From the NCBI GenBank assembly GCA_963575745.1, contig CAUYUJ010000164.1, positions 1 to 64,000 of the forward strand: a stretch of 64,000 nucleotides of DNA, written 5' to 3'. This DNA is from Prorocentrum cordatum (taxonomy: Eukaryota). The position numbers and the translations under genes are program-made. Positions 6,819 through 53,642 of this stretch are shown here, in pieces (the stretch's first letter is position 1; every line of letters starts with the position of its first letter). Under the pieces are notes generated by a model. That model was not told the DNA's origin, ran no database searches, and saw only the letters and a list, made by a program, of their open reading frames with translations.

Positions 6819-6840
6819 AAAAAAAAAAAAAAAAAAAAAA

Positions 6841-6885
<45 letters not shown>

Positions 6886-6982
6886 AAAAAAAAAAAAATG
6901 AACAAAAAAAAAAAAAAAAAAAAAAAAAAACAAAAAAAAAAAAAAGAAAAAAAAATAAAAAAGAAAACAAAAAAAAAAAAAA

Positions 6983-7056
<74 letters not shown>

Positions 7057-7093
7057 AAAAAAAAAAAGAAAAAAAAAAAAAAAAAAAAAAAAA

Positions 7094-7162
<69 letters not shown>
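6819..7162 (+). repeat. Impure poly(A) tract interrupting the RT domain
   Basis: About 340 nt of A with scattered C/G/T, between the RT RPGVPYS motif and SFVDD. Confidence 0.9.
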
Positions 7163-7166
<4 letters not shown>

Positions 7167-10110
7167 GGCCACCACATCCGCCCCTGCGACAACCCGCTCT
7201 TCTCTACGGCTCCTCATCACGGCGGCAAGCTGACCAACATGTCCTTCGTCGATGACCTCACCGACTTCAACTCGACCACCCGCCACTCCGACATCATTGA
7301 CATTACGAGAACTTCAGCCGAACGACTATGCCGTACAGCATTCACCTACGGGCTCAAGCCACACCCAGACAAGACCAAGGTCATCCTCTCCTTTAACGGG
7401 ACGGGATCCAACGTCGCACGCAGTAGGCTTGCACAGCAGAACATTACATCAATCCAGCTGAGCATCATGTCGATCTCGGTCCAGATCACAGACCAGCACC
7501 GACTCTTAGGCACCATCCTCACCAGCGGCAGCATGGGCCCCGAGGTGCAGAATCGCATGCGACGAACCGACGCTTCGGCACGAGCTCTTGAGAGGCAAAT
7601 CCTACGACGTCGACGCCTACCCCGCAAAACAAAGATCAAGTACGTGCACGCCCTCTCGACTGCCTCATTAACCTTCAACCACCACGTCTGGCCAGCACTG
7701 ACCCAGACTGACCACCAGCGCATCTCCAATGCCTACTCGAAGCCCTATCGCACGGCAGCTGGAATACCCAAAGCTAACTCGCAGCTTCATCATTTCACGG
7801 CCACCGAAGTAGTAGCCTACACTGGCATCCCCGACTTCGACCACCACCAGTCTGCTGGAAGGCTGCGATACTTACCACGGCTTCTACGATACGCTCCTCA
7901 GCAGCTCCTCCAACTGCTTGACAACCAGCGACGGAGAAAGGGCTCATGGACATACATGCTTTTCCAGGACTTCGACTTCCTGCGCACATACCTGGACGAC
8001 CAGCGCTGGCCCACGACCAGCAAGCTCGACTCCGACGTTTTTGCATGGGCACGCGCCACGCCGAAGCACTTCAGCAACTCCGTCAACCTGGCTGTCACAA
8101 ACTACATCCGCGCATCCAAAGACCGCGCCCACGTCGACAAGCTGACCAAGGTGCTCAGACCCGACGGTCCCATTGGTGCGGACCCCACGCCATCACGCGA
8201 CAACGGCGCCAGCAACTTCATCTGCTACGAGTGTGGAATCGTTACCAAGACCAAGCAGGGCATGGCAATACATATCGGACGTGAACACCGACGACCTGAG
8301 CATCCGCGAAACTGGGCATCGGGTACATCGTGCAGAATATGCCGCAAGAACTTCCACTCCTTCGCCAAGCTCGTGAAGCATCTAACTACGGTCGCCCGCT
8401 GCCGACGGTCTTGGCACCTGTGGTATTTACAAGGGCCTGCCCTCACGGAAGAGGACGTGGCCACCAATCAGGCGACATACGCAGCCAGCATAGCCGACAA
8501 CAAACGCAGAGGCCGCCCCGAACTATACCACCCTATCCCTGCCCACGCATCCGACGTCACTCCCTTACCCTCCCTTGACCTTTCACCATCACCACCGCCA
8601 TTCTTCCCGACGGTACCAGCGATTACACCACCACCACCAGCCTACTACCCTCGGACACCGACCAGAAACAGATCTCTGCTTTACCTCACCAACATTGACA
8701 GACACCCGAACGATCTGCTCGACACTACGGACCAACGACTATGCTACAATGGAATGGTGATGGAACGGGTTACTCTGACCTTCGATGACCTCTACTCTGT
8801 CGACCACCCATCTCAGTACGACGCCCTCGACTCGCTCCACCAGCACATACGACAAGGCGACTTTGCTGGAGTGATGATCAACCTCTCACCCAGCACGTGG
8901 ATCGACCAAGTCGATGGCTACCCGCCCGACAGAACGGCAGCATCTTCCAGAACGACCACGGACCCCTGGGGCAGAGTAAACCTTGGAGGTGAGGCAGCCG
9001 AACGCCGATTGATTGCGAACCACCACGCCCGCCTCGCCATCCACACCTTCCACGCGGCTCACGTCGCCGAAGTACCAGCACTACTAGCGCAATCCTCAGC
9101 CCCAGCAGGTCCGTCAGTGATGTGGAATACTGAGATGATGCTCTACGCTACGGAGAACCTTGCTACGAGACGACCGACCATCATAGACGACGCCAGCAGC
9201 CTCTACGCCATCTACTTCGGCCTCTCCCAGGACCACGGTAATCCCCTCGACGACTTCGTCACCTCCATTTTGGGCAGTCTGCCCCAGCTTGGTCGGACAG
9301 CAGCCGCTGATCCGACGACCCGATCTGGCCGTAACATGGCCCAAGACGATCGAGACAGGCGCCCACCACGGCAAGACGGCCGCAGTGCTCACGGCGGCCG
9401 CCAGCCCCATCCTGGACGCCCCCTCGAGGGCGAGGGGGGGGAGGACTCGGTTCAGGCCTGACCGAACCGAGCCGCCGCCGGCGGGCCGCCGCCTGCGCGC
9501 AGGCCGTCACGGGGGTTTTTTTCCCTTCCTCTTCAGGCCTTTACTGAGCCCCCTCTCCCTCCTTCCTCGTCCCCGAAACTCCTGGGCCCGTTTTCTCGGT
9601 CCTTTTCGGCCCCCGCCCCTCTGGCGGGAGCATGTCGGGGGGTGACCCCCCCCCAGGCGCCTCGGGCGCGCGCGCGTAGCTTCGGCCGCGCGGACGGCTG
9701 CGTCCAACTGGACATCGAGCCGATAGCGATAGCGATAGCGATAGGGAGGGAGGGAGGGAGGGAGGGAGGGCCAGCGGGCGGGGGGGGCGCGGGGATGGGA
9801 GCGCGCACGCAGACCGAGGGAGACCGCCGCGCGCGCGCGCCGAGGGAGCACGTCCGAGCAGTGCGCGGCGAGGGCCGAGGCGGCACAGTCTCGGGTCGGG
9901 CGAAAGGGGCCCAGATGGTCTGGTACCGGAAATTTTCGGTAGCGATTTCGACGCACCCCGAATTTCGGTAGCGACCGGATCTTCGTTTGAGGACGTTGAA
10001 ATAGCGGATTTCAGAACGGTCTGATACCGGTATTGGGCGCTACATTTCGGTATTTCGGTAGCGACCGATCTCTGCGGAGCGCTACCGGAAATTTTCGGTA
10101 GCGGACCATC

Positions 10111-12788: not shown

Positions 12789-12991
12789 CCCAGACCCCCT
12801 CGCACTGTGAAAAAATCACGACGGGAGGATTGTCGCTATTTTCGGCCTCCGAGACCCTTACCGGCCTCCGAGACCCTTACCGGGCCTCGGGACCGTCAGA
12901 AAACGACTCAGGACGAAAAACCGGTCCCGGGGCATGGGTCGGGACCTCTGGGGGTCGCGTCATGAACAAATCATGACGTCGGGGGTCTGGG
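12789..12991 (+). mobile_element. CCCAGACCCCC-TIR MITE (~185-bp family), copy with small internal duplication
   Basis: Starts CCCAGACCCCC, ends GGGGGTCTGGG, shares internal sequence with other copies; TSD not preserved. Confidence 0.8.
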
Positions 12992-13310: not shown

Positions 13311-13782
13311 AGACGACGAAGACGACGGCGGCGGCGGCGGCGGCGGCGTCGACCGCTTCGCCGATCCAACAAGTCCGCGCAGAGCTCTGACAGTTCATGT
13401 CTGTGCACTCGTCTCTTCTTGGGTCCTCCTCCTGGAACAGGCGATCGACATGCTATCCCTGCCCCTGCCCACGCGCCGGCCCCACGAGGGCCAGAGCGGC
13501 GCCATGGATCAGCTCCTGGCCTCTGGAGCCACGTTCTTCGTCCATGCCCTGCGTCCCCTGGCTCCCAGGAGTGGGGGGCAGCAGCAGGCGTGCGGATCGA
13601 GCGCCGATCCCGGACCCCCGACGTCACGCTTTCTCCATAACTTCTATCCCACGGGGTCTCGACCCCTTCCCCTGGGGCCGATGTTTCATCCTGGGCCGTT
13701 TCTTGACTGCCTCGGGGCCTGGCGAGGGCCCCCAGAGGCCGAAGACAGCACAAAGCCTCCCGTCGGGACTGTCTGTTTACGA

Positions 13783-13942
13783 GGAAGTCGGGCCCGTCCC
13801 TCTACAGGCGGGATAGTCAAAAATAGTAACAAAAAAGTCAGGGGTTGATTTTTTTTATATTGTTTGACCATTTGGGAGTATGTTTTGAGTTTTTGTAATT
13901 GTTCGTCGAAAACCCCCCTGTAGGAGGACAGGCCCGACGTAA
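13783..13942. mobile_element. 160-bp MITE with 8-bp TSD, nested in a decayed CCCAGA MITE
   Basis: TSD GTTTACGA at 13775-13782 and 13943-13950; imperfect TIR AAGTCGGGCCCGTCCCTCTACAGG / CCTGTAGGAGGACAGGCCCGACGT; related end near 24826. Confidence 0.7.
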
Positions 13943-14929
13943 GTTTACGACCCGCGGGGGTCTGGGGTCCTCGGTCCTCCAGGCCCGGGGCCTTGCCTGG
14001 CCCACGGGACCGGGCGTTGCGAAGCGCATGCGACCTCGCGGCAAATCGCGACCAGAGCCCCAAGCCCCACCTTCCTGCGGCACCTGGCGAGCCGGATCGG
14101 CACACGTCGTACCTTTCTAGTCGTGCTCATCTCCGACGGTGCTCGTTGTAATTAACTGTTCCCGGCCCCCCAGTGGCCAGGAAGAGGCCCAGGACAGAAG
14201 AAGTAGAAATGAAAGGATCTTGGTCCCCCCCAAAAAACAAAGAACTCTCGAATCTTTTTTTTGAGACTGATGAGGCGGAGCCTCCAGTTCTCACAGTTAG
14301 CTTGCCTGAGCTGTGTCGGCACAGCACTCGGATGCCTGATGGGGCTTCTCCGAGAATGTTGGGAAATCGAGTTGACTGCAGAGCAAAAAAAAGAACTCTC
14401 GAATCGGCTACACGCAAGAGTGACCCTGGGTAAGAGTGACCTTTGGTGCGCGGCTTTTTAGGGGCCGCGGGGGAACCAAACCTGGGCGCACAAACCGCTG
14501 CTCCTGCTTCGTTTTCCGCCACCTGGGGACCCATCTGTGCCCGCACCAAAAGTCACTCCGGCGAAAGGTCACTCCTACGTCTAGTCGATCGAAAAATTCG
14601 AAATCAACCATGTGTACTTCATGGCCCCGGCCCGAAACTGAACGCCCGGCGCAGAAAGTTGCAGCGCCTGGATCTCAGAGCTGCCCTCCTCGGAGCCAGA
14701 GGCCCCCCGCCTCGCCCTCTGGTGGCTTTCGGGCCCCAAGCGCGGGCCTCCTGCGGCCGCTCGGGGCGGTTCGGGCACCCCCTGGAGCGCTCTCGCCGAG
14801 ATGCAGCCGGCGGAAGGCATCCCGAGGCTGGAGAGCCGCCGAGATCCGACGAGAGCGTCCGAGAACCTTCAGCCACGAGACTTCGAGCCAGCACCCCCCC
14901 CCGCCTAGTCCTCGACCCTGCTCAGGGAG

Positions 14930-20760: not shown

Positions 20761-21482
20761 GCGCTGCCCTCACACTCAGACTCGCTCGTACTCAGACTCA
20801 GACTGAGCAAACTATCCTCAGACCCACGCGCGCGCAGACTTTCCTCACACTGAGACCCACTCGCAGTCACAAGCACCCATACTCAGCCTTCGCATGCTCG
20901 GGCCCACTCATACTCAGACTCTCTAATGTCTGAACTCACTGGCGCTCAAACTCAATCATATCCGGGCTTGCTCACACCCAGACTCACTCACACTCAGATC
21001 ACTCACGCTCAAATTCGCTCCCTCGCTCTTCTGCTTGTGCTTCCCTCATATCTCTCCTGAAAGATTCCCAGAGGAGGACGACGTCACTGAAATCGTCGCT
21101 GTCGTCGTCGCTGTGGCCTCCGTCATCTACGCAGACTCGCTCTCACACCCTGATGCTCACTGACAGAGCCTCTCAGCGCGACGCGACAGGAGCATGAGAT
21201 GCACAGATGGGGATTTCCGCGTCAAGCCATTCCATGGCTCGAGCGGGTCTGGGGCCCAAGGCAAGGGTGCATGCCTTGCTCCGCCCTGAGCTCATCGTCC
21301 GCCTCCGGTTGCTGTCGCCAGCCCCCAAAGATGAGCCTCGCCGTGCTGGCGCCCCCGGCGCAGGAACTTGTACTCCGGGCTGCCCGCGGCCGGGGCCGCT
21401 GGCCGCGGCGCCGCGGTGCCGCCCCTGCGCGCGAAGAACTCCTCGATCTCGGCCTCTCGGAGAGCCCCCCCCGAGACCCCCT

Positions 21483-21651
21483 CCCGGACCCACGACGTCA
21501 GGATTTTTGTCACAGCGTCGACCCCCAGAGCCCATGAGGTCTCGACCCACTCCTCGGGCCGGACGGTCCTGGGCCCAAGAAGGGCACCCAGAGGCCGAAA
21601 ATAGCGAAGAAACTCCAGTCGTGATTATTTCACGATCCGAGGGGGTCTGGG
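21483..21651 (-). mobile_element. CCCAGA MITE, decayed copy
   Basis: CCCGGACCCACGACGTC ... GAGGGGGTCTGGG with family-typical interior. Confidence 0.65.
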
Positions 21652-23046: not shown

Positions 23047-23222
23047 CCCAGACCTCCTCGCGTCGTGAACAAAATCACGACGGATGTTTTTCGCTATTTT
23101 CGGCCTCCGGGGGCCCGGCCTCGGGGCCGTCAAAAAAGTCAGGACGAAAAACCGGTCCCGGGGAATGGGTCGGGACCTCTGGGGGTCGCGTCATGAAAAA
23201 ATCATGACGTCGGGGGTCTGGG
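23047..23222 (+). mobile_element. CCCAGA MITE copy
   Basis: CCCAGACCTCCTCG ... CGTCGGGGGTCTGGG. Confidence 0.75.
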
Positions 23223-24457: not shown

Positions 24458-24643
24458 CCCAGACCCCCGACGTAATGATTTTTTCATTACGTCGACCCCC
24501 AGAGGTCACGACCCTTTCCCCATGACCGGCTTTGCATCCTGAGTCGTTTTTTGACGCTCCCGAGGCCCAGTGAGGGCCCCAGGAGGCCGAAAATAGTGAA
24601 AAACCTCCCGTCGTGATTTTTTCATTACTCGAGGAGGTCTGGG
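24458..24643 (-). mobile_element. CCCAGA MITE with 2-bp TSD (TT)
   Basis: TT flanks both ends; an uninterrupted relative of the target repeat (CTACCACGACATGTTCT...) occurs at ~43720-43900. Confidence 0.85.
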
Positions 24644-25121: not shown

Positions 25122-25310
25122 CCCAGACCCCCCGACGTGGCGATTTGTTCATGACGTCGACCCTCAGAGATCTCGACCCCCTCCCCTGGACCGGCTTGTC
25201 ATCCTCAGCCGTCTTTCGACGGCCCCGAGGGCCGGTAAGAGCCTCGCGAGAGGCCGAACATACAGGAAACATCCCGCCATGATGTTTTCACTGCCCGACG
25301 GGGGTCTGGG
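25122..25310 (-). mobile_element. CCCAGA MITE subfamily copy, part of a longer repeat inverted at 39789-40091
   Basis: CCCAGACCCCCCGACG ... GGGGGTCTGGG; similarity to the 39.8-40.1 kb copy extends to ~25455. Confidence 0.75.
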
Positions 25311-26099
25311 TTCGAGGCCTCCACCCACTCCCCGGTGCCGGTTTTTCACCCCGAGTCGTTCCTGCGCGGTCCAGGGGCCCCGCGAACGCAGGCGGAGAAT
25401 CGCCAGAAGCCGCCTGTCCCGACTTCTCCGTGATCCAAGGGGGTTACACCCCAGGAGGAGGAGGAGGAGGAGGAGGAGGAGGAGGAGGAGGAGGAGGAGG
25501 AGGAGAAGGCGGAGGAGGAGGAGGAGGAGGAGGAGGAGGAGGAGGAGGAGGAGGAGAAAGAGGAGGAGGAGGGAGGGGGAGGAGGAGAGGGGGAGGAGGA
25601 GGAGGAGAAGGAGGGGAGGAGGAGGAAGAGGAGGAGGAGGAGGAGGAGGAGGAGGAGGAGGAGGAGGAGGGGGAGGAGGAGGAGGCGGAGGCGGAGGAGG
25701 AGGAGGAGGAGGCGGCGGAGGAGGCGGAGGAAGCGGAGGAGGAGGAGGCGGAGGCTCGAAGGGCCCTGGGAGCCGAAGGGCCCAACGGGAGCCTCGAGGT
25801 CCGCGTCGAGCCCGCCGGCCGGGCCGCCGCCGTGCTCCCCGCCGCCCGGCCCGCGCAGCTCGCGCAGCTCGCGCAGCGCGCGGGCGCCGTGCGCGGCGCC
25901 CGGCCGCGGCGCCGCGGCAGCGGCGCGCGTTGGCCCCGCGAGGGGGCCGCCGCCGCCGGGGCCCTCCGGCAGGCGCCCGGTGGGCACCTGCCAGGGCCCT
26001 AAACCGAGAGCGTGCCAGGGCCCTGCCATGGTCCCACATCCCAGACCCCCTCGCGCTGTGAAAAAAACACGACGGGAGGTTTGTCGCTATCCCAGAGCA

Positions 26100-26220
26100 T
26101 CCAATCCACAGAAAAAAATGTGGATTCACATTTCTCCTATCGATCCACATTTTTTTTGTGGATCGACATTTTTTCCGGGGAATCCACATTTTTTTTTGTG
26201 GATCCACATTTTTTTCAGTG
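26100..26220. repeat. Left subterminal repeats (TGTGGATCCACA-type palindromes with A/T tracts)
   Basis: Several variants of AAAAATGTGGATCCACATTTTT, mirrored at 38575-38665. Confidence 0.85.
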
Positions 26221-26387
26221 TTCGCTGAGTTTCACGATTTTTTCATGATTTTTTCTTGAATTTTTCATTAATTTTTCTTGAATTTTTCTTGAATTTGCTT
26301 TTTCGTTTTCTTAGTATTAATGTTTACTCGGGTATTTAATGTAAAAACGCAAGTGATACATGATGATTGTAAGCGCTGGAGCTCATT

Positions 26388-26655
26388 GTGAGGACGTTCC
26401 GAATGAGAGTGGTTGACAGTACTCTGAACCTCGGATGCCACCAGTGTAGTGGCGGGCGGATTATTGCGAACGCTTGAACTTATTCTGAGGACATCCCGAA
26501 AAAGAGCCGTTGACAGAACTCTGAGCCTCGGACGCCACCAGTGTAGTGGCGGGCGGATTATTGCGAACGCTTGAACTTATTGTGAGGACATCCCGAGAAA
26601 GAGCCGTTGACAGAATTCTGAGCCTCGGACGCCACCAGTGTAGTGGCGGGCGGGA
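26388..26655. repeat. 97-bp tandem repeat, ~2.7 copies
   Basis: CCAGTGTAGTGGCGGGCGG recurs at 26441, 26538 and 26635. Confidence 0.9.
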
Positions 26656-26984
26656 TTGACCGTTGCTGTAACTAGCCCCTCTTTGACGTGGCCGAAATCG
26701 AACCATGACCACTCCCCACCTCAGTGATGAGAGCGATGATTCCTAGATCCCCGAAGACATTTACGCGAGGTACGAAGATCCAGAGTTTGATCCTGTGCAC
26801 TACAGCATGTATAACTACGGGGGTAGAGATCGCACGCGCCAGGGACAATGACGAGGACGACGGGGACGACCCTGACGACGACCCAGACGACGACCCCGAC
26901 GACCACGGGGACGGAGGGACCGATAACGACGACGGTCGACCTGAAATGCGTATGGACTTGTGGGCCGACGACGGTCGACCTCGA

Positions 26985-27060
26985 ATGCCGCGCTTGTGGG
27001 ATCTCACTTTCGGCCCTGACCATGGTCAGGGCCGAAAGTGAGATCCCACAAGCGCGGCAT
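26985..27060. repeat. Perfect 76-bp palindrome without spacer
   Basis: ATGCCGCGCTTGTGGGATCTCACTTTCGGCCCTGACCA|TGGTCAGGGCCGAAAGTGAGATCCCACAAGCGCGGCAT. Confidence 0.95.
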
Positions 27061-27270
27061 GAGATCCCGAAAGTGAGCTTCCTCAATAATCCCGCGCCCT
27101 GAGAGCGTACCCAAAGAGAGTTCGGGAAGAGCGTCCACAAACTGAGCAAAGGACCTTTTGGGTCCAATCCACCCCACATCCCTAAGACCTGTGTTCCCTG
27201 TCCCTTGGTCCCCTTCCCTCCCATTCTCCCGTCTTCTCTACCCCTTTCTCCTGCAGCCATTTTGCCCAAG

Positions 27271-29349
27271 ATGGTGAAGAAGTGGACGCCACCAGATGGC
27301 GAAGACCCGATGTCTATACTTGCCCCTCTTTTGAAACCGCAACTCAAAGATGTGTTGAATGATGGGCTGTATTCATCTACAGATATGAAGAAGGGGATTG
27401 ACGTGCCCTACCTGGAAAAAATGTCGCCCTGTCTACACGCCCTTTTCAGCTTAGATCCCAGGGGCGGCTACTTTCTCCAAGATGACATGGTGAGAACCGT
27501 GACCCACCTGTGCCAAGAACGAGACGCTGCCTCCAAGCTGCATGCCCTGTCTGTGGGGCTCAAGAAAAGCGAATCAGAGACCATTGAAAATATCGCATAT
27601 GCCTACCGTGTAATGTGTTCCCATGTGAGGGAAAAGTTCGATGCGATCTCAAAACAATCTGGGGCCAATAGAGCAACTGGTGGGCCCCTCGACGTGGTTT
27701 TCCAAGCTTTAACCTCGTCCGCAACGGGTACACGGAGAGCCTCATCAGCCAGCGGTTCGCGACTAGGGCCGCACGGGCATGACAATCTCAGGATCGACGT
27801 TTACACCCCTGGAATCCGTAGGGCCACAAAGGCTCGAATTCAGGAAAAAAACGAGATTCAAAAGAAATTCGTGAATTCCTGGTTTCTCGAAGAGCCCCTT
27901 TTCGCAGTTACTGCCAGAACGATTCCCGTCCTCTTTTCTCTCTCTCCCTCCCTCCCTCCCTCCCTCCATCTCTCCCTCCTCTTCTTCTCTCTCTCCCTCA
28001 TCTCTTTCCCTTGACCCCGTTGGTGAGACCCCAAATTTTCTGAACCCTCGGCCGATTCGCAACTCCCCAGGCAGTCCGCCGAGAAGACGAACCCCTTCCC
28101 CTTTTTCCGCAAGAAGGACGGGGTCCACGACGACGACTCGGACGGGGACGAGGGCGACTCGAGCGAGAGCAAGGAGGACAGTGACGACGATGACAAGCGT
28201 GTCGTCTCTCGGTGCCCATGGGAGGATGATCAGGGGTTACCTCAGATGGTCCGCAACGCAATCGTCTAGCGCATTCCTGTAATGACGAGGGGGGGCAAGG
28301 GTCGACGGGGGAAAAACCTGAATAGACGGATTGTCGACGGTGGGGTGAACGTCCACCCCCCTCGGGCAAGAGTTACGGGTAATGTCGATGGTGCTCCACG
28401 TGTTTCGGGCCCGAATTCTGATCGCCCTCCCTCCCCTGCCCCCCATCTCCCCTTCGAGGGACGCCAGGCGATTGCGCTGAGGCTGCTTTGTTGTAGTATT
28501 GACACCTCCCCCAAGTTGGTTCGACGGGGTGAAAGCGGTGAGCCTGCTTTCCGACGGCACCGAGATGACTGCTACTCTCATCTCAGGCTGCCGTCCCCTC
28601 CGCACTCCTCCTAATCCTCCTCCTCCTCCTCCTCCTCCTCATCCTCCTCCTCCTCCTCCTCCTCCTCCTCCTGACCCCCCTCCTATCTTCCTCATCCTCC
28701 TCCTCCTCCTCCTCTTCCTCCTCCTCCTCCTCCTCCTCCTCCTCCTCCTCCGATCCTTCACCTCCTCTTTTCTTTATTGATCCGCCCGTGAGGCCCACGT
28801 GGGTTCGTGGTCGCGATCCACTTCGACAACCACGAGGAGGAGACGACTTTGCCGAACTCCCACCTTACCGACGAGGGCGCTGTGCGCTTGGGGACAGCTA
28901 GCGGCATGAAACGCCCAGCTGCATCCTCGGAGGAACCAGTGGGCAAGAAGCCAGCAGCGGCACTCAAGCGCCCCGCAGCTGCAGCTTCTGATGATCGTCC
29001 AGATGGTGGCGTCCCTCCGCCAGACGAGCCTCCACGCGTGAAGATCTGGCCGACCAGACTTACCACTGCTGCTGGACACAGTGGCGCCCAGGTCGTGTTC
29101 GTGCACTTCACGAACCACGAGGGCAAGAAGAAGATGATGCAGGTGGGTTCGTTCTCCCCGAATGCAATGAAGGAGGGCTACATCGTAGAGGTATGCGCCA
29201 ATAGCCACAAGGAGGTCTTGCAGGGCTACCCCGAGGACAAGTGGGACCTCAACTCGTCGCGGACGGAGGCCGAGATTGAGGAGTTCCGGACCTTTGCGCG
29301 CAAGGCTCGTGATCACATCTTGAGCCGCACTGCAGGCACTGCAGGCTAG
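27271..29349 (+). CDS. Transposon cargo gene 1, hypothetical protein, 4 predicted exons (27271-~27791?, 28071-28211, 28516-28586, 28793-29349)
   Basis: ATG follows a pyrimidine tract and SL relic CTGCAGCCATTTTGCCCAAG (27251-27270). Exons 2-4 join in phase (..VVSR-WFDGVKAV..LISG-PRGFVV..). Acidic tract and KRPAA repeats present. First donor uncertain. Confidence 0.6.
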
Positions 29350-29716
29350 TTTGATGCCGCTGTCCTAGGACAGCGGAGGAGGAGGAGGAGGCAGAGGAGC
29401 TCCTCTGCCGACCGCCTCCTCGCTCTGGCTCTTCTCCTCCCACCTCCTGTCTCCTCCTCCTCCTCCTTCTCCTCCTCCTCCTCCACCTCCTCATCCTCCT
29501 CCTCTTCTCCCACCTTCTGCCTTCTCCTCCTCCTCCTCCTCCTCGTGGTGTTCCTCCTCCTCTTCGAGATCCGTCTCACTCATCCTGCTGATCTTTTGGT
29601 AGGGGCTCTGCGACCTGGCCCTGCCCTGGAAAAAAAACAGGTCTGTCTGAATTTCTCGCTCTCGCTCAGCCGCTCCAAGCCCCGACCCCAAGCCTCAGCC
29701 ACATGGGCTCGAGGCG

Positions 29717-32019
29717 ATGCTTCTAATTTTGATTACATGTATTTCTGAAGTCTCCGCGTCGCCAATCCTTAGAATCCATGGCGATACTGTTGGTAGCCTT
29801 GTGAGAGACACAACTCCTCGGGACCTGGATGTGGCTGAGATTTTCGCGGGAAGCTTCACCCTCTCTGAAATTGCGTTTGATGTTGGCTTGCGGTCTAGAG
29901 GGCTTGATAAAAACCAAGGGCCCGATCATGACATACTGAGTCTCTCTGGCTGGACCCGTGCAAAACGTATGGTGTTGAGCGTCGTACCTGCTGGACTCTG
30001 CTGGTTCGCACCTGATTTCGATCAATGGGTTGGGGGCCGAAGCGAACGATGGGTTCGGGCAGTTGGTTCCGAGCAGTGGTCACCAGGGCCCCGAGTAGAA
30101 GGTAACTGCGCTGTCAAAGCTGTGCGTGATGCTAACAATATGTTGAGAAGGACCTTATTCCTGATGGAGCTCGGGGTCCGACGCGGTGCCCACGTAATCC
30201 TAGAGAACCCGTTCGGCAGTGAAGCGTTCAATTTCCCGATGACGGTCGCACTCGCTAATTCATTGGGTCTTTACGGGGCTGCTACATCGTTGTGTAATTT
30301 CAGCTCGGGTGGGGACGGCATGCCGCACGCGACCCTGTACCTCCTGGGCTCACCGTGGTGGATTGTCCTCCTAAGCTTGCCTTGTCTACACAGCGACCAG
30401 GGGCACAAGAGACTCGAGGGTGTTGGTTCGAATCGCCGCTATTCCAAGAAAGGCCTGCTTGTGTTCAAAAATCAATGGGGTTTATGCTGCCCTCCTACCC
30501 TCCACCCCCAACGTCCATATCCCAATCAACAATACCCAGGGTATCCGCTACTCCAACCTTTTCCCACCCCTCCTCCCTCCTCTCTCAAGGGTCCCGCCTC
30601 CCCCTCGCCACCCTCCCCCTGTCCTCTCGAAGCTGTCTCCCAGCCAGGCATTCGAAGCTATCCGACGCAATTTTGCCACCGTGTGATCACCACTTTCAAG
30701 TTCTATCGCACCAGAGTTGCACACGAATCAGGAGGCCTCCCGAGAGTAGCACTGGCGTGCATCACAATCGGCTCACACTTCCTGGGGACAGGGCGGTTTG
30801 AGCACATGGGGGATTCGTCAGAACAGCCGATTGCAAAACGACCTCGACGATGTCTTCCAGAACCCCCCGATTCTGATGATGGAGCAGGGCCCGCCCCTTC
30901 TGATGATCGAGTATTTATACATGGTCCTGGGAAGTGGTTTCAGTTATCAATGCTCTCGCCTGATGCCAGAGAGACCGCTGAGTCAGAGTTCCCACACGAG
31001 CATGACAGCGAGGTGGATCCTGAAGATCTTGGAGGACCGATGCTGGTGGACCATGGGCCTGAGTGCGAGCCTATCGAGACGAACCCTAACGAGGAAGAGG
31101 TCGTGGCAGTCGATTTCCAGGAGGACCAGAAAATCAACAGGGAGGAGGAGGAGATGGCTAGTCGCAGGCTCCTGAAGGCCATGAGGGACCACCAGGAGTC
31201 CAAGGACCTGGATCTGGCGAAGATCTTGCAGGGGGAACTCGCTAGGGAGGCTTTCGCCGCAGCAGAGGACCTGGTGATTCCAATTTAACCCACATCGTTG
31301 GCGTTTCGTTCGGCCCGTTCTCCATGGCGCGAGCTTGAGGCTCGATGACGCGCTAAAGAGAACTGAATCGAAAGAAATTCCATCGAGGTGGGTGAAACTC
31401 GAATCGACCAGGAACGAAACTCCACGGACAATGACGACACGTCTTTGGAGCTTGCAAAGAAACTACAGCAGGAGGACGCTCAAGGGATCTCTGAACAAGA
31501 GGATAAGCGGCAGGAGGAGGGAGACAGCGGTAGGAGGAGGAAGGAGGAGGACTGGAGACCTCCTCCTCCTTCCTCCTCCTCATCGTCTCCTCCTCCTCGA
31601 TCCTCAGTCTCCTCCTCAGTCTCCTCCTCCTCCTCCTCCTCCTCCTCCTCATCCTTCTCCTCGTCAGTCCTCCTCGGACGCCCTCCCATAGTCGTTGCTT
31701 CTCCAATCCTGATCCTGAGATCTCCCACATCCGCCTTGTCTGGTCCTCCAGTCTTGTCTGGTCCGCCCCTCTTGCTTCGTGAGGGCCAGACAAGACTGGA
31801 AGACCAGACAAGACGGATCAAGAGGAGTTCAAGCTCGCCCTGGACGAGGCGGACACGCTGGATTTGGGCGCGTCGGCAGCTTCGCTTCGTACGCCGACGC
31901 CTGGCGCAAGCAGCAGTGGCCCTCGAGTCAACCCATTTCCACATTTCCGAGCTCCTGGAGATGGGGAGGATGATTCTGACAGTGGCCACTTGAGCAGCCC
32001 AACTCTTGAGATGATGTAG
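29717..32019 (+). CDS. Transposon cargo gene 2: C5 cytosine DNA methyltransferase-like protein, catalytic Cys apparently replaced; acidic C-terminal tail
   Basis: Motif I VAEIFAG, motif II/III-like GLDK..HDIL, motif IV position WFAPDF (expected P-x-C), motif VI ILENP, motif X-like SYPTQF after removal of an in-frame GC-AG intron 30453-30647. Exons beyond ~31265 (to TAG 32017-32019) are tentative. Confidence 0.65.
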
Positions 32020-32836
32020 GGGCGCCCACGAGTCTCCAGCTCGGCTGATGAGAGGGTAAAAAAAACACCAGCGTTTGGTTTTGTGGTCAGATTTTGACGT
32101 TCGGCCCGCTTTCGATTTCCTCTGGCCCAATCTGGGCCGATCCTGGCCCATGGGATCGCTCTCAGACCGCTTTGGGTCAGCCTCGGTCCTGAAATTTTCA
32201 GGAATTCTGAAATTCCTGAATTTTTGAGAACAGTTAGTTTTTGATGACAGTCACAAGGAAAACAATGATTTCTGAAATTCGTGATTTTTTTCAGGAATTT
32301 ATGCCGAATGATTTTTTGATGATGTCGCAAGCGAAATTGATGTTTTGGAGGTTTTCATGAATTTTTCTTGAATTTTCTGTTTTTCATGAATTTGCTCGGC
32401 ATGGTTTTTTGAGGATGTCACAGGCGAAATTGGTGTTTTTTTGATTTTTCATGAATTTTTTCATGAATTTGGCGGCGTAGCCGGCCTCGCCGGCCTCGCC
32501 GGCCTCCAGGTGTCCGGGAACTGGGGCCTCGGGACCCCTTGGTGAACTAGAATCGGTTCCTGAAAAGCTTCAGGTTCCTGGAAAAATCAAAAAAACACCT
32601 AGATGTCTTGTCCATCGCTCCTCAACCTCCGACCTCCTACCTCCTCTTCCTCAACCAACCTCCGCCTCCTCTTCAACCTCCGACCTCCTCTTTCTTAGCT
32701 CGCAGGAAGGCTGAGCTTTATCCTGAACGATTGGGCACGGCCCATTATGGCGTGTTTGTAGCCACACATTAGGCTCGAAGCTGCTTGAGGCTGCCACCGT
32801 GCCTTACCTCACTGGCGATACCTCTCTCGGTTGACA

Positions 32837-34307
32837 ATGGCGCAAAAAGCCAAGGGGGCGGCAAAAGCAAAGGGAGCCGCGAAATCCAAGGTGGAATCCA
32901 AGGATAAGGAACCCAAGGGTTCCAAAGCTCCCAAGGATACCCCCGTCGCGGCCGAGACCGCAGTAGTTCCCGTTCAGGGTTCGGAGAAAATTCCGAGGGC
33001 GGTCCAACGAGTTCGCGAGAGTCTCAATATTCATGGCGTCGATCTCTCAACACTTACCGCTGATGACTTCATGAAGTTGTCCAAGAAAGAGATCGACGAT
33101 ACCTTCAGCGCGCTCCGCTACCAGCTCTCCAAGCGTTCGGATAAAAGTGCCCTGGACGATTACATGAAGCTGAAGGCGGATGCTGACCGCAGGGACTGGC
33201 TTGCAAAATTCGTGGTAGACCCGAGCACGGGCGGCAGCACGGCGTCGAGCAGCACAACAGTGACCAAACGCGACACGGAGAAGGAGGTCGACGAATGGTT
33301 AACAGAGAAACAACTCGGAGGTCCGCAATGGTTGAACGACCCATATGCGGCCAAGATATTGTGCGAATCTGGTGACTTGGAGGATCGCCCCCATCGCTAT
33401 CCTAGTCTTGCCAAAGCTAACATCAAGGAGTTCAAGTTCACCAGGGAGATGATGATGCGCATGAGCGGCACTGAGGAGCAGAGCAAAGTCACCACTGAGG
33501 CGGAGATGGACCCAGAGCAGTACATGCAGGTGCAGCGTGCCATGGCCGACTCCTTGAAGCGCCAGATGCTCGCAGACAACACCACCACACCCGACCCCAA
33601 AGGGAAGAGATCCAAGAAAGTCAAGACTCCGCCTGAGGACGAGACCGAGGAGGAGAAACTCGCGAGGGAAGCTCGGGATGCCTTGCGTAACCGTCTGGCC
33701 TCCAAGAACAAGACCCTGAAGGAGCTCAAGGCCTACTTCGACGGGGTCCTGAACGAGATGCGCGACGTCGACTGGGTCAAGGAGCGCCTGGTGAAGAAGA
33801 ACCTACCAGCTGCCATGGGCGACTTCGTAGCGACTCAGGTCACTGAGCAGCTGAGCAAGATCGAGCCTCTCCAGGCCTGGCGTCCGAACGCCTTACGAAC
33901 AAGGAGGAGGAGGAAGATGAGGAGGAGGAGGAGATTGAGGAGGGGGGGGGGGGGGAGAAGCTAGAGGAGGACGATGAGGGAAGGAGACGGAGGAGGAGGA
34001 GGGTTTGGGCAGCTTTCGAAAACAAGCTTGGGACAGTTTTTCAGAAAACTGTTTTTTTGTTCAAAGGGGATGAGGAGGAGGAGAAGGAGGAGGAGGTGGA
34101 GGAGGAGGAATAGGAACATGTGCGATATCGCTCCCAGAGGCCTTGTACTACGAGTACAAAGCCGTGCCCGACTCGGAGTGGACCGACAAGAAGCTCGAGA
34201 AGTTCACGGATACCGTCAACTCCAAGAAGAATACCTTCAAGACGGGCTACGACAAGTTCGTGAAGGAGACCTGGACCGACGTGAAGGGCATGTGTGGCCC
34301 TAAGTAA
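32837..34307 (+). CDS. Transposon cargo gene 3, hypothetical K/E-rich protein, exons 32837-33874 and 34140-34307
   Basis: Long open frame with G/C-ending codon bias; phase-0 GC-AG intron gives ..EPLQ-ALYYEYK..CGPK*; degenerate SL relic at 32758-32780. Confidence 0.7.
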
Positions 34308-34877
34308 GCAGCGTCGAGCATTTTGCTCACGCGCGCAGGCTGCCAGCAGAAGGCTCGGAAAGATCATCCCCCAGGATTCCTGGATTGTAACAAGCCCCGA
34401 CGTTGGCAGCCTGCGCTAGCTAGTTTCAAAGATCTGTCTCTGGGTGTAATGCGTCTCACATCATTACTGGGATATCGCCTGGATTTCAGACGATCGACCC
34501 AAAAGACAGCTTTTGCGTTACGTACTCAAACTCTTCCTCTCTTCATCCTCTTCCTTCTATTCCCCCTCCTCCCCCATCTCCTCGACCGCATTCTCCTCCC
34601 CCCTCTCTGTCATCCTTATCTCCTCCCGTCACCCATCCACCGCCTCACCCCATCTCCTCCGCTTAGCTTGACCGTCTTAGCTAGGGGATCTGGCAGAAGT
34701 CGGCGTGGCCCGACGCGAGAAAAACAGCCGCTGTGGCGCCTGGAGCCGCGCGCAATCCGAAGGCCCAAGAATTTGTAGCATCCGAGGATGGATAGCGTGG
34801 ATTGTGAGGACACTCTCGTGCAAGGAGGGGGTGCGATTGCTGTTTCGACCCAAATCTTTTAGCTGCATGTCGCCGCC

Positions 34878-37221
34878 ATGGGGGGGAAACGTGGTGGCAT
34901 TCGCCAACGACTCAACCTTGATGGGGAAAAGGGTGAACAAGTTCGCGAAGATACTGTTAACAAGCGGTACAGGTCGGGGGGGTTAGCAATCGCACTGCCA
35001 CCAAAGGGGGCGTTTAATTCAATTCCCCACGCCCTCCATACGGACCCTAGGGCCCCGACCCCATCCCATTCTGTTTCAGAAGCAGGTCGAACACCGAGAC
35101 CTGGCTTAGCAAGCTCTTTTTTCGCGGAACTCTTCCAGCAACGCATGTTGGTGATGGGGCCAGGGCAGTGTGCGACGACCAATCTGATATCGGTGATCTT
35201 CCCGATTGGGCTAAGATTGGTGCTCGAGGTGCACATCGTGGCAATTCTCATAGGCGTTTGGGGTATTAATGGGGCGAGGGGAACCCATAACCGAAAAAAA
35301 GGACCGACAAGAAACCAGTTCATCAGAGACGATGCGATGTTTTCAGTTCTCCCAGGGGTCAGACTGTTTTTGTTTGTGCCCCCCTCCTCCCGCCCCCACC
35401 CCGAGGGATCTCATGCGGGTTCTGTCCAAGAGCTCCAAGATGCCCAACGTTTACCAGGCTGAGGGTGTCTTCTGGGACAAGAGGTCTTCGACCAAGTATA
35501 AAGCGCCATTCAATTTTCTACTACCATATGAAATACTGGAGGCGCTTATACCAGAAGGGGACGAGGAACGGTGGGCGACATTCCCTGAGGGTACACTTGC
35601 GGCAGAGAGGTCACTGAAAAACCTTTGTGAACGGATCGGCGCCAGGAGATTTGACAACGACAGTGCTGCTCCTCTCGGTGGGTTTGGCGTGTGGGGGGAT
35701 GCTGCACCTTACAAGCATAGGGACAGCCTGTATCTTACTCTATGGAATATGTGCACGGGGCCAGCGACACACCACAGATTCTGGTTTACGGTTTTTGCGA
35801 AACGCGATATATGCATGTGTGGCTGCAGCGGCAGGTGCAGTTTTGAGCCAATTTGGGATGTTTTAAGATGGGTGTCACTCGTGTTTATTACAGGCCGTAT
35901 GCCAGACAGAAGGCATGATGGTATCAAATTTCAAGACTCACCGTTTAAGCACGACGCTGCTCGGGCAGCGATCGCTGGGAAGCCGCTTCGTTTTCGTGCC
36001 CTGTGTTGCCAAGCACGGGGTGATTGGTCGTGGCTGAAACAGGCTCTCGGCGTGCAAGGGTGGCAGGGTAAACTTCCTACAACTCGATGTTGCTTTCGCT
36101 GCCGTTGTACTCGCCAAGACATCCTAAATACAAGCAGCACTGCTCCGTGGCGTAGGGCGCTCATCACGCACTCGGATTTTATGAACGATGTTTTTGAAGG
36201 CCGTCAAATATTGGTTGGTTTGTTCAAGCTACCAGGTTTCACGTTAGACATGGTGGTGGCCGATCTTATGCATACTGGTGATCTCGGAATCGTTCAGAGC
36301 CTCCTCGGAAACATATTCTGGGAACTATTTCTCGAACTTGGTGGCAAATACGCCACGCCAACAGTTACACTCGACAAGCTTCTGAACATGATGAAATTTG
36401 CGTCTCGACATCTAGGGCTCGAGGCCCCCATAAACCAACTCACCGTCGGCATGATTCGGTCCACCGAGAAGGCCGCCCCGAAAATGAAGCTGAAGGCCCA
36501 AGGGTCCCACCAACATCTCTGCTGCTACTGCTTCAACTGCTGCTCATCATCCATTCCCCCTGTCCCCCCCCCGACATCCCAAGAGGGCGGGGGGTCAAAA
36601 ACAAATGTGTTTTACTGTGTAATCTGGAGTGTGCCCTTCCCCTCTCTACCTTCGAATCCCTTCCCTGGTCCCCTCTCATCCCCTCCTCCCTGTCTATCCT
36701 TCCCACCTCCGCCACCTCTTCTCCTCCCCCCTCCTCCCGAACGAGATTCCACCCAGCCCTCTGATGGACAGGCAGCCGAGGGCCGCCGAATGCTGATGTG
36801 CGCAAGGTTCATCCTAGAGTCGTTCTTTGCGGTGGGCAGCTCCCACGAGAAAACGAGATTGTGGTGTACTGATGCCCTCTGCCGTTTTTATCAGGAGCTG
36901 AAGGACTGGAGACCTCACGAATCGCCTAAACGCATAGCCTTGTTTGCGCAGCAGCATCTCGCGATGTATTTAGAGCTCCACATGGAAGCGAAGAGCGAGA
37001 TGCTTTGGAAATTTTATCCGAAGCACCATCTTTTTATGCATATCGCAGAGGACCAAGTAGAAACCCATGGGAACCCCGCTGAATACTGGGCGTACCGAGA
37101 CGAGTCGGAAATCGGAAGAGCTTCGGAGTTAGGGGCCGTTGCACATCCTCGCACGATCGGTACAGTGCTGATCGACAAGTATCGGTGCGGGGATTTGTTC
37201 GACGTTGCTGCTGATGTTTAG
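34878..37221 (+). CDS. CACTA/EnSpm(CMC)-like DDE transposase, intact, 600 aa; exons 34878-34972, 35086-35253, 35406-36495, 36772-37221
   Basis: GCCGCCATGG start; exon sum 1803 nt in frame without stops; motifs GNSHRDL, VWGDA, RGDW, CFRC, DLMH..DLG, KLKAAE, PKHH.F.H, NP..YW.YRDES.IG. Confidence 0.82.
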
Positions 37222-37789
37222 GTTGCCACTCTCGCGTGCATCCTCTGGCCCTGCCACCCTCCCCCCGCCAGCATCACATATGAACACATATCTCCTCTCT
37301 CCAACTCTCAGCCTGCTCTCGCTTTGGGCAGCTTGCGCTTCAAGCTGCAACAGTCGGTATTGGCAATTGTGAAAAAATAGGTCTCGTAAAAGCTACCTGA
37401 AGCAATTCTTCGGGCAAGTCTTGTTTTGGAACGCGCCTGGATCCACCGATTGCTATTGTTCCGATATTTCTGGTGCCACTTCTAGAGACTTGAGGCCACG
37501 TCTGAGGAGAAATGTTCGAGCATACTCAAAGCAACGTTTCTGGAAGGACATTCGGAACCGTTGGAAGGATCAAATGAGGGATATCAATCCGAAGTTGTCT
37601 GGTACCCTGCCCATTAGTCCACAGGCTACCGCCATTTTGCCGCTGCCCCGTCCACTTCACGGAGGAGGAAAAGGAAATAGAAGAGGAGGAGGAGGAGGAG
37701 GAGGAGGAGGACAAGGAAGAACAGAGTAGGAGAAATAGTTACTCCACAGGCTGACGCCAGTCCGCCGATACCCCGTCGACTTCAGCGGC

Positions 37790-38515
<726 letters not shown>

Positions 38516-38574
38516 ATACGCCAAAACGTGAAATTCAGGATTCGTGAAAAATTCCTGAAAAAATCGTGAAAAAA

Positions 38575-38665
38575 ACAAAAATCCACAAAAAAAATGTGGA
38601 TCCACATTTTTGTGTTTCCCTGGTGTGGATCCACAAAAAAAATGTGGATCCACATTTTTTCCGGG
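38575..38665. repeat. Right subterminal repeats
   Basis: AAAAAAATGTGGATCCACATTTTT palindromes matching the left end. Confidence 0.85.
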
Positions 38666-39364
38666 ACCGACGAATTTTTCCGGGGATTGGATGGTCTGGG
38701 ATTATCGGCCTCCGGGGGCCCTCACCGGGCCTTGGGACCGTCAGAAAACGACTCAGAATGAAAAACCGGTCCTGGGGAAGGGGTCCAGACTTCTGGGGGT
38801 CGCGTCATGAAACATTCATGACGTCGGGGGTCTGGGATTGGAGCGCCCTGCAAGGGTCCTATACCAGGGCCGTGCCAGGGTCCCACCAGAAGCCAACCAG
38901 GGTCATACCAGGGCCCAACCAGGGTCAAGTCCTGGCATGACCCTGGCAGGGCCCTGGTACACCCCCTAGGCAGGACCCTGGTGAGACCTTGGTACGGCCG
39001 CAATAGTACCCTGGTAGGACCCTCCCCGGAGATCCCCAGATCTCCGACGATGTCCCAGACACAGGTGGTCGCGTCGTGGAAAAATCGGGAGGGGAAGTCT
39101 TTGGCCGCGTTCGGCCTATAGGGCCCGTGAAAGAACGACTCAGGACGAAAAACCGGTCCCAGGGAAAGGCTCGGGACTTCCAGGGACCCCATAATTATTG
39201 AAAACATAAGGACGTGGCATGTCTGAGATGATCCTTGCCTTCGGCTTCAGGGGCCCGTCCCCGGGCCCTCGGCGGCCCCGGCCGTCAAAAACAGAGCTGG
39301 CACCCACACGTGCCAGTGCGTCCAGGGAGCGGGGGAATGGGTCGGGAACTCTGGGGCCGCGGAT

Positions 39365-39549
39365 CCCAGACCCCCTCGCGTTGTAAAAAAATCACGACGG
39401 GAGGATTGTCGCTATTTTCAGCCTCCGGAGGCCCTTACCGGGCCTCGGGACCGTCAGAAAACGACTCAGAACGAAAAACCGGTCCCAGGGAATGGGTCGG
39501 GACCTCTGGGGGTCGCGCCATGAAAAAATCATGACGTCCGGGGTCTGGG
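39365..39549 (+). mobile_element. CCCAGA MITE with TSD AT
   Basis: AT|CCCAGACCCCC ... GGGGTCTGGG|AT. Confidence 0.85.
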
Positions 39550-39904
39550 ATTGAAACACAAATATCGGAGGATGTCTGGGTCCAGGCGCTGCCACTTTTT
39601 CGCACCGGCCATGTTCGCTCGCTGTGGTCGGGGGCGCGTACAGGACGACAAACACGGCGGACTCGGCCAAGACGGCAGACACTTCTTTCAGGACGCGTAC
39701 TGGTCCTCCTCCCTCCTCCTCCCCCTCCATCCCCTCCTCCTCCTCCTCCTCCTCCTCCTCCTCCTCCTCCTCCTCCTCCTCCGCCTCCTCCTGGGGTGTG
39801 ACCTCCTGGGGTCACGGAGAAATCGGGACGGGCGGCTTCTGGCGATTCTCCGCCTGCGCTCGGGATGAAATAACCGGCCCCGGGGAGCGGGTCGGGGCCT
39901 CGAA

Positions 39905-40091
39905 CCCAGACCCCGTCGGGCAATGAAGACATCATGGCGGGATGTCTCCTGTATTTTCGGCCTCTCGCGAGGCTCTTACCGGCCCTCGGGGCCGTCGAAA
40001 GACGGCCGAGGATGACAAGCCGGTCCAGGGGAGTGGGTCGAGACCTCTGAGGGTCGACGTCATGGACAAATCGCTGCGTCGGGGGTCTGGG
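39905..40091 (+). mobile_element. CCCAGA MITE subfamily copy (inverted relative to 25122-25310)
   Basis: CCCAGACCCCGTCGGG ... GTCGGGGGTCTGGG. Confidence 0.75.
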
Positions 40092-40143: not shown

Positions 40144-40330
40144 CCCAGACCCCCGACGTCATGAATTTTTCATGACGTTGACCCCCAGCGGTCTGGACCC
40201 TTTCCCCGGGACCGGTTCTTCGTCCTGAGTCGTTTTCTGACGGTCCCGAGGCCCGGTAAGGGCCCCCAGAGGCCGAAAATGGCGAAAAACCTCCCGTCGT
40301 GATTTTTGTCATAACTCGAGGGGGTCTGGG
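40144..40330 (-). mobile_element. CCCAGA MITE with TSD TA
   Basis: TA|CCCAGACCCCC ... GGGGGTCTGGG|TA. Confidence 0.85.
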
Positions 40331-40491: not shown

Positions 40492-40678
40492 TCCAGACCC
40501 CCTCGAGTCGTGAAAAAATCACGACGGGAGGTTTGTCGCCATGTTCGGCCTCTGGGGGCCCTTATAAGGGCCTCGGGACCGTCAAAAAACGACTCAGGGC
40601 GACAAACCGGTCCCGGGGATGGGGTCCCGACCTCTGGGGGTCGACGTGATGAAAAAATCATGACGTCGGGGGTCTGGG
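40492..40678 (+). mobile_element. CCCAGA MITE with TSD TT
   Basis: TT|TCCAGACCCCC ... GGGGGTCTGGG|TT. Confidence 0.8.
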
Positions 40679-53542: not shown

Positions 53543-53642
53543 NNNNNNNNNNNNNNNNNNNNNNNNNNNNNNNNNNNNNNNNNNNNNNNNNNNNNNNNNN
53601 NNNNNNNNNNNNNNNNNNNNNNNNNNNNNNNNNNNNNNNNNN
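53543..53642. other. Assembly gap (100 N)
   Basis: Run of N. Confidence 1.

Follow-up and report, generated by a model that had tools for sequence, protein, structure and literature searches.

What does a DNA transposon gain, if anything, from carrying the gene for a methyltransferase-like protein without the catalytic cysteine? The question is raised by the first 64,000 nucleotides (forward strand) of contig CAUYUJ010000164.1 from the Prorocentrum cordatum assembly GCA_963575745.1, hereafter the window. An open reading frame (ORF) in its middle part codes for a protein with the predicted fold of cytosine-C5 DNA methyltransferases (DNMTs), and the locus combines three features: a transposon bounded by terminal inverted repeats (TIRs), a DNMT-fold cargo that is invisible to the Pfam model PF00145, and the loss of the catalytic nucleophile. 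It is, in short, a nucleophile-less DNMT-fold passenger gene on a DNA transposon. The product of this intact gene is probably either a non-catalytic helper of the element or a passenger that was disabled recently. The anatomy of the locus is solid; its functional reading is weaker.

The forward-strand frame is open from 29651 to 31285 (545 codons) and thus across the whole domain, as an earlier sequence-only reading of this DNA had stated; the first ATG is at 29717 and a TAA follows at 31286-31288. The strings on which that reading was built (EIFAG, APDFDQW with its TTC codon, LENP, DLDLAKILQGE, and SLELAKKLQQED) are all present in their places (Table 1). A phmmer search of 1.84 billion cluster representatives with this protein yielded 424 relatives at E<=1e-3, of which 35 were at E<=1e-10; the best (P0002, E 3.8e-37) is 40% identical over residues 6-226, a similarity that chance does not explain. 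The column counts given here are from a MAFFT alignment of the query with 150 listed relatives of the 424, in which 148 rows are occupied at the position of the catalytic cysteine. At this position, 146 rows have Cys, the query has Phe, and a single relative, P0030, has Ser, so that Cys is found in 146 of the 147 relatives and the column is the most conserved one in the family. A cysteine is accordingly expected at the motif IV position, just where the sequence-only reading had noted its absence. The next two residues are D-Q in the query and typically S-S in the family (S in 110 and 112 of the 148 rows). In P0030 (1175 aa), a Copia-like polyprotein by its RVT_2 match (E 1.2e-4), the DNMT-fold domain is N-terminal, and this fusion indicates that the domain can ride on retroelements elsewhere.

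Of the 27 columns with a conservation of at least 80%, the protein retains 24, including the Glu and Gly of motif I, the acidic D57 and D65 after β2, R101, N133, R149, and E156 and P158 of the E-N-P motif, in agreement, as far as these residues go, with the claim that the S-adenosylmethionine (AdoMet)-binding and E-N-P motifs had survived the loss of the cysteine. Motif I reads F-A-G-S-F, with the first Gly of F-x-G-x-G kept and the second replaced by Phe; in the family, the Glu and Gly columns are conserved in 139 and 135 of 144 rows, respectively, and the position of the second Gly is occupied by G in 68 and by A in 31 of 144 rows. The E-N-P motif, which terminates the strand formed by residues 152-158 of the domain model, is conserved in 145 (E), 111 (N) and 143 (P) of 148 rows. 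The hidden Markov model (HMM) of the family aligns with residues 35-257 of the ORF and then, weakly, with residues 336-403; among the 957 six-frame ORFs of the window, none besides the DNMT-like ORF scores below E 0.5. Between the two aligned parts lies a Pro/Ser-rich insert (30449-30655) that is missing in the homologues and may be an in-frame intron. The stretch SYPTQFCHRVITTF (S-Y-P-T-Q-F..V-I) beyond this insert resembles the C-terminal helix of the family, with a domain E-value of 52 that is not significant on its own. Of the family's C-terminal Cys/His cluster, C216 and H218 are present in the ORF. The N-termini of the window's protein (29717-29764), P0002, and P0004 contain short hydrophobic stretches that look like signal peptides by eye; in the model of another relative, P0016, the corresponding segment forms a helix that packs against the domain, so that its role may be structural.

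The family itself is large and unnamed. A Pfam scan of the whole ORF at E<=10 gave no PF00145, only a sub-threshold CCDC50_N match in the tail; PF00145 was absent from 31 family members at E<=1, and none of 136 aligned members had any Pfam domain at E<=1e-3. The ORF had no NCBIfam match; phmmer against the sequences of the Protein Data Bank (PDB) found nothing relevant, and the family profile had no match there. No names were attached to the clusters of the 10 relatives that were looked up. A word-indexed protein search found no match with the domain; with the family profile, it returned 16 unnamed proteins, none of them with a Pfam domain. The Joint Genome Institute (JGI) metagenome contigs contained four distant loci with 28-41% identity, one of which (L001) keeps the Cys and none of which has the TIR of the element described below or a gene resembling its transposase-like P0159; a scan of IMG/VR revealed no relative of the domain. 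The first half of the family consensus runs R-D-L-D-x-V-E-x-F-S-G-V-G ... F-D ... E-D-I-x-T ... G-G-L-L-W-x-A-P-x-C-S-S-W, and the rest of it ... R ... G-N ... R-G-V ... E-N-P-x-x-S ... R-C-A-F ... K ... W ... C-x-C ... H ... S-x-A-Y-P-x-x-L-G. The motifs are arranged in the order of E-x-F-x-G at β1, an acidic residue after β2, D-I, β4 followed by A-P-x-C-S-S-W, β5 leading to E-N-P, and the S-x-A-Y-P helix.

The AlphaFold2 model of the domain, computed with 136 sequences in the alignment, has a pLDDT of 86.8 and a pTM of 0.86. In a Foldseek comparison with the PDB, its top 50 matches were all DNMT3A, DNMT3B, DNMT3C or DNMT2 (best E 7.6e-6), and the structural matches included the DNMT3A-3L and DNMT3A2-3B3 complexes. 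The model of the full-length, Cys-bearing P0016 reaches a pLDDT of at least 95 over residues 1-270, and its top 50 matches were likewise all DNMTs. In an unbiased structure search, C5 DNA methyltransferases occupied ranks 1-6, with alignments of 191-219 residues as opposed to 150-165 for short-chain dehydrogenases/reductases. The methyltransferase fold that had been presumed from the letters is therefore the one predicted, of the C5 type, and the closest PDB structures are C5 DNA methyltransferases. We conclude that this large unnamed family without a Pfam match has, as modelled, the fold and the motif order of C5 cytosine methyltransferases. By profile, the protein is not a member of PF00145, and it lacks the nucleophile, though it shares the fold. 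Should the family instead be some other Rossmann-fold transferase, or act on RNA, uracil or a small molecule, the cysteine would have no nucleophilic role, and the protein could be active without it. We regard this as very improbable, given that C5 DNA methyltransferases fill the top six ranks with the longest alignments and account for every one of the 50 best Foldseek matches of either model, and that the cysteine is the family's most conserved residue. In M.HhaI, the catalytic Cys follows β4 and motif VI lies at the end of β5; the family has its Cys after β4 and E-N-P at the end of β5, as in enzymes of this type. Compared with the bacterial M.HhaI and M.HaeIII, the family has P-x-C in place of P-C, E-N-P in place of E-N-V, and a small, Cys/His-rich C-terminal lobe; the identity to these enzymes is 8-11%, with no profile match.

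A second pattern in the family concerns the disordered C-terminal tails, where 23 of the 98 members of at least 300 aa contain the motif [RKSA][SAT]WxxP (35 motifs altogether). In shuffled tails, it occurred in a mean of 3.3 and a maximum of 10 members; the window's protein has none. This may be a docking motif.

The gene resides in what is most likely its carrier, a cut-and-paste element of 12.8 kb; we are fairly confident that this element carries the DNMT-like gene as cargo, and less so about its superfamily (EnSpm/Plavaka-like). An 11-nt TIR, CCCAGACCCCC, is found at 26040-26050 on the forward and at 38826-38836 on the reverse strand (11/11 nt), giving the termini CCCAGA...TCTGGG, and is flanked by an AT target-site duplication (TSD). 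With up to one mismatch, CCCAGACCCCC occurs 27 times in the window as against 3.3 expected. Ten inverted pairs of it delimit units of 176-358 bp, mostly about 187-190 bp, that resemble miniature inverted-repeat transposable elements (MITEs) and cluster to the left and right of the long element. Of the 11 elements that share this TIR, 7 have the same 2 bp on either flank (binomial P about 1e-6). Homology with the two ends of the MITE-like units extends over the 5' ~70 nt and 3' ~137 nt of the long element, so that the long element and the short units appear to stand in the classic relation of an autonomous element to deletion derivatives of the MITE-like kind. The description of the gene as transposon-borne is upheld, as the TIR pair and the AT/AT flanks enclose it together with a transposase-like ORF.

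The long ORFs inside the element are all on the forward strand. One of them encodes P0159. Six proteins are homologous to it, at E 1e-84 to 2e-18; one is labelled by its source as Alexandrium andersonii, a pointer to dinoflagellates. The alignment of these seven proteins displays GxxGDxxPY, an invariant RGDWS, an invariant C280-x2-C283, DxMHxGDLG, PKxHLFxH, and DESxIG, in the layout D...D...C(2)C...H(3)H...E, with the catalytic residues picked by eye. The sole independent pointer was a lead from the ESM Atlas to Plavaka PF18759 (score 0.91, 147 shared features); no Pfam transposase model, such as PF18759 or PF02992, matched P0159 or three of its homologues at E<=1. A Pro/Ser-rich insert at residues ~420-510 (36514-36783) is missing in all homologues and, like the one in the DNMT-like gene, may be an in-frame intron. 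According to Kojima (2025, PMC12730594), the CMCT clade, which comprises EnSpm/CACTA, Mirage, Chapaev, Transib, and Plavaka, is characterized by the motifs C(2)C and H(3-4)H, by TSDs of 2-5 bp, and, in most cases, by 5'-CA..TG-3' termini. Measured against that description, our element has the TIRs, the 2-bp TSD and the transposase motif layout but not the CA..TG termini. The carrier looks intact: its 11-nt TIRs are perfect, and both a TSD and the transposase motifs are present.

An inverted repeat at 25122-25540 and 39704-40091 was considered as the TIRs of the element and rejected, as it has no TSD and each arm holds a whole ~190-bp unit with TIRs of its own. The otherwise unpaired TIRs at 26040 and 38836 fit better than this 421-nt inverted repeat. 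The latter is 85% identical by blastn (~92% in the core) and runs past one MITE-like unit into GGA repeats to the left and right of the long element; a composite structure or the duplication of a flank may account for it. Just inside the 5' end of the element, at 26362-26652, a 97-bp unit is present three times in tandem (81-82% identity).

Is the missing cysteine real, and is it shared with other copies? Logan contigs of four public runs were compared with positions 29400-32300. In X3, a marine-metagenome run, two contigs span 29859-30148 and differ from the window at 0 positions, the TTC codon included, which shows that TTC is not a private assembly error. In the best-matching run, a DNA run of a single organism (X1), the sole listed contig over the codon represents a diverged copy, which has TCC (Ser) there; over its 162 nt (29969-30130), it has 17 differences and 3 gaps, with a net 3-nt insertion nearby. 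For an assembly or sequencing error at the Phe codon, nothing specific speaks apart from the lack of a listed window-identical contig over the codon in X1, and we give it almost no credence: two X3 contigs agree with the window, the diverged X1 contig is Cys-less as well, and the adjacent residues differ from the family too (D-Q for S-S). At least two diverged copies thus lack the cysteine and have different residues, Phe and Ser, in its place. The answer as to whether the loss is shared is divided. At the level of the family it is not, as 146 of the 147 relatives, the four nearest among them, keep the Cys, which is the outcome that the sequence-only reading had named as its refutation; at the level of the organism, the only other copy seen has Ser, and for this reason the loss is not simply a single-copy mutation. 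Two more diverged contigs, with 84-85% identity, cover 30620-30782 and 31695-31979; the contig over the latter region, from X1, has indels of +3 and three of -1. From run X4, guessed to be RNA, one contig of 237 nt aligns to 30883-31110 and carries an insertion of 9 nt. The dinoflagellate spliced-leader 21-mer had no match in the window at up to three mismatches.

What could such a protein do? As it lacks the thiol for the attack on C6 of the target pyrimidine, it should be unable to perform the canonical covalent cycle of C5 methyl transfer; with the cofactor-pocket residues and the predicted fold kept, it probably retains the ability to fold and to bind AdoMet, nucleic acid, or both. DNMT3L and DNMT3B3 are non-catalytic partners of DNMT3A and DNMT3B. 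By analogy with them, we favour, at a rough probability of 45%, a non-catalytic accessory protein of the transposon. Such a pseudo-enzyme might sit on target sites or associate with paralogues that have the Cys, MIU-like (motif interacting with ubiquitin) helices in its tail might tether it to ubiquitylated proteins, and the outcome for the element could be either protection from methylation or recruitment of it.

The same anatomy would be seen if the protein had no function at all, that is, if a formerly active member had lost its cysteine recently and was now drifting, its frame still open by virtue of youth and a GC-rich composition. This account is a distinct possibility, if a somewhat doubtful one. 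It fits with the nearly universal retention of the cysteine among relatives: a tree of 141 rows built with FastTree groups the query with P0002, P0009, P0003, and P0004 (support 0.946), all four of which have Cys, and Cys-less forms seem not to persist or diversify. It also fits with the loss of other conserved residues, with the mostly non-synonymous character of the listed differences between the two copies, and with simulations of neutral substitution, in which the ORF (523 codons from the ATG) was still open in 37% of cases at 2% divergence. The frequency fell, however, to 13% at 4%, 6% at 6%, and 0.4% at 12% divergence, and the second, ~12% diverged copy is also Cys-less, with a net indel that stays in frame; had the loss been shared and followed by neutral drift, the ORF should seldom have stayed open. 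Drift is further opposed by the 24 conserved positions that are kept, by a terminal branch (0.92) no longer than those of the four Cys-bearing sisters (0.74-0.98), and by the apparently intact carrier element. A selected accessory role and recent inactivation are inseparable on the present data, and we lean towards the former.

Several observations weigh against a selected accessory protein. Further conserved positions were lost besides the cysteine, namely K198A (Lys in 130 of the 138 occupied rows of column 198), S229V, and SS>DQ. Cys-less forms are rare, with 2 of 148 rows, both singletons, and neither Pfam nor NCBIfam nor the PDB sequence profiles link the family to PF00145. Of the 17 substitutions in the diverged X1 contig, 9 are listed; 2 of these are synonymous (30010 and 30040), and the other 7, in 6 codons, change the residue. 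This pattern does not look like strong purifying selection, an argument of limited weight given that the stretch is the most variable loop of the family. That contig may, moreover, come from another strain or organism, which would weaken the argument from a shared loss. No RNA run is listed that covers the stretch. Finally, the assignment of the MIU-like helices comes from the MIU consensus and a sub-threshold Pfam match, and ubiquitin binding is hypothetical.

The MIU is a short helix with the consensus acidic-hydrophobic-x-L-A-x-x-L-Q-x-x-acidic and a central Ala. Two strings that fit it by eye follow the domain, as the sequence-only reading had pointed out under the heading of MIU or ubiquitin-interacting-motif helices. 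The first, DLDLAKILQGE, is in the ORF; SLELAKKLQQED is in the same frame but past three stops (31286, 31346, and 31364), so that its translation would require the removal of an intron of 3n bases. The strict pattern [DES][LIVMF]xLAxxLQ is unusual, being found in 1 of 176 analysed proteins, the window's own, as against 0.06 expected from shuffles, and once more in the downstream ORF; its absence from the other 175 makes it a feature of the window's gene, not of the family. The Pfam domain CCDC50_N overlies residues 476-533 with E 0.0045 and 17.7 bits, below the cutoff of 27. According to PMC2699339, the central Ala of the MIU is essential. The claim of two MIU-like strings stands as far as their presence and their rarity go.

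From these helices and the dead active site, the sequence-only reading had derived a ubiquitin-binding, DNA-binding decoy, an anti-silencing factor that shields the element from host methylation. Such a role would be in keeping with the retained fold and cofactor residues next to the lost nucleophile, with two MIU-like strings within 270 nt and a weak CCDC50_N match, and with the precedent of transposons that carry epigenetic modifiers, as described in PMC12730594 and PMC5890265. We consider it unlikely nonetheless: the second string lies past the three stops, the pattern is foreign to the rest of the family, and PDB sequence searches with both tails returned nothing relevant. The most far-reaching version, an EnSpm/Plavaka-like transposon family of dinoflagellate-type genomes with a selected, nucleophile-less DNMT-fold protein whose tandem ubiquitin-binding helices help to interfere with or redirect host cytosine methylation of the element, has in our view only a small chance of being correct.

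The notion that a LINE in the same window bears a second dead DNMT-like domain, with convergence across two classes of transposable elements, found no support. The long forward-strand ORFs at 2453-9458 and 53645-58241 are likely, from their weak Pfam signals, to be divergent LINE-like elements; these signals comprise RNase_H/RVT_3 (2453-4030), Exo_endo_phos (3943-7230), zf-RVT (55603-57237), and C2H2. No reverse-transcriptase profile matched these ORFs at E<=1. PF00145 was not found there at E<=1 and the family HMM had no match below E 0.5; tblastn with the DNMT-like ORF gave no second match in the window below E 0.12. The window as a whole is GC-rich (about 0.5-0.67) with many low-complexity tracts, is plainly eukaryotic, and contains an assembly gap of 100 N at 53543-53642.

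Table 1. Features of the DNMT-like gene and of its candidate carrier transposon, in window coordinates
Feature	Position	Strand	Basis or remark
Candidate autonomous cut-and-paste DNA transposon, 12,797 bp	26040..38836	+	TIR pair, TSD, subterminal repeats
Target-site duplication AT	left 26038..26039, right 38837-38838	.	identical 2-bp flanks
MITE-like units, left	12789-12991, 13609-13966, 21471-21651, 23047-23222, 24458-24643, 25122-25310		CCCAGACCCCC pairs
MITE-like units, right	39365-39549, 39905-40091, 40144-40330, 40492-40678		CCCAGACCCCC pairs
Subterminal repeats, ATCCACA..TGTGGATCCACATTTTT type	26105..26214, matching set 38581-38678	.	both element ends
ORF, no family assigned	27103..28011	+	Pfam scan
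DNMT-fold gene, first ATG to TAA	29717..31288	+	family HMM, E 9e-61
Methyltransferase-like domain as modelled, 237 aa	29738..30448	+	AlphaFold2 model
EIFAG, motif I-like β1/loop	29837..29851	+	followed by S-F; second Gly of F-x-G-x-G is Phe
APDFDQW, motif IV-like loop after β4	30008..30028	+	Phe codon TTC 30017-30019 at the family's Cys
LENP, motif VI-like, end of β5	30200..30211	+	E-N-P at 30203-30211
Pro-rich low-complexity insert relative to family members	30449..30655	+	HMM alignment gap; residues ~267-335
SYPTQFCHRVITTF, like the family's C-terminal S-x-A-Y-P..L-G..I helix (motif X-like)	30656..30697	+	position consistent
MIU-like helix 1, DLDLAKILQGE (putative)	31205..31237	+	fits MIU consensus by eye
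MIU-like helix 2, SLELAKKLQQED (putative)	31442..31477	+	same frame, past the three stops
Possible last exon, other frame, acidic tail to TAG 32017-32019	31783..32019	+	putative coding; 32019 is the end coordinate of the sequence-only reading
P0160 ORF, Lys-rich, coiled-coil-like, no family assigned	32789..33961	+	no Pfam match below E 0.07
P0159, DDE transposase-like ORF, 655 codons	35254..37218	+	homologues, motif alignment

How does this locus compare with known systems? DNMT3L and DNMT3B3 resemble our protein in keeping the DNMT fold after the loss of catalytic capacity and offer a model of how a dead methyltransferase might act; they are host genes, whereas ours is transposon cargo, and the homology is no closer than the fold (9-12% identity). 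In Symbiodinium, the retrotransposons SymbioLINE-Dnmt and SymbioDIRS-Dnmt3 encode DNMTs that are reported to keep the key catalytic positions (de Mendoza et al. 2018, PMC5890265). Like these, the P. cordatum element is a dinoflagellate mobile element with cytosine-methyltransferase-type cargo. Unlike these LINE and DIRS elements, whose DNMTs are recognised by PF00145, it is a DNA transposon with TIRs and a TSD, and its cargo domain escapes PF00145 and lacks the nucleophile. In fungi, DNA transposons of the CMCT group, EnSpm and Plavaka included, encode TET/JBP dioxygenases, according to PMC12730594. Our element shares with them the cut-and-paste type, a DDE transposase with C(2)C and H(3-4)H, a short TSD, and cargo of the DNA-modification type. 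It differs from them in its methyltransferase-like instead of dioxygenase cargo, in its host, which is not a fungus, and in its termini, which are CCCAGA..TCTGGG as opposed to mostly CA..TG. In the open-access literature searched, we found no description of a cut-and-paste transposon with a DNMT-like gene or of the family with A-P-x-C-S-S-W and E-N-P.

The theme of mobile elements that carry DNA-modification genes would thus be extended by a carrier of a new kind, a transposon with TIRs and MITE progeny, and by a new cargo, a DNMT-fold family with 424 cluster representatives that is invisible to Pfam-based surveys. The analysis also flags a large unannotated family of methyltransferase-like proteins in marine protist data. 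Even if the loss of the cysteine reflects decay, the locus would still be a clean and well-bounded example of a new family of DNA transposons with cargo. The dead enzyme itself may represent a new strategy; if so, the retrotransposons that bear DNMTs would have in the P. cordatum element their equivalent among DNA transposons, one that follows the opposite, non-catalytic strategy.

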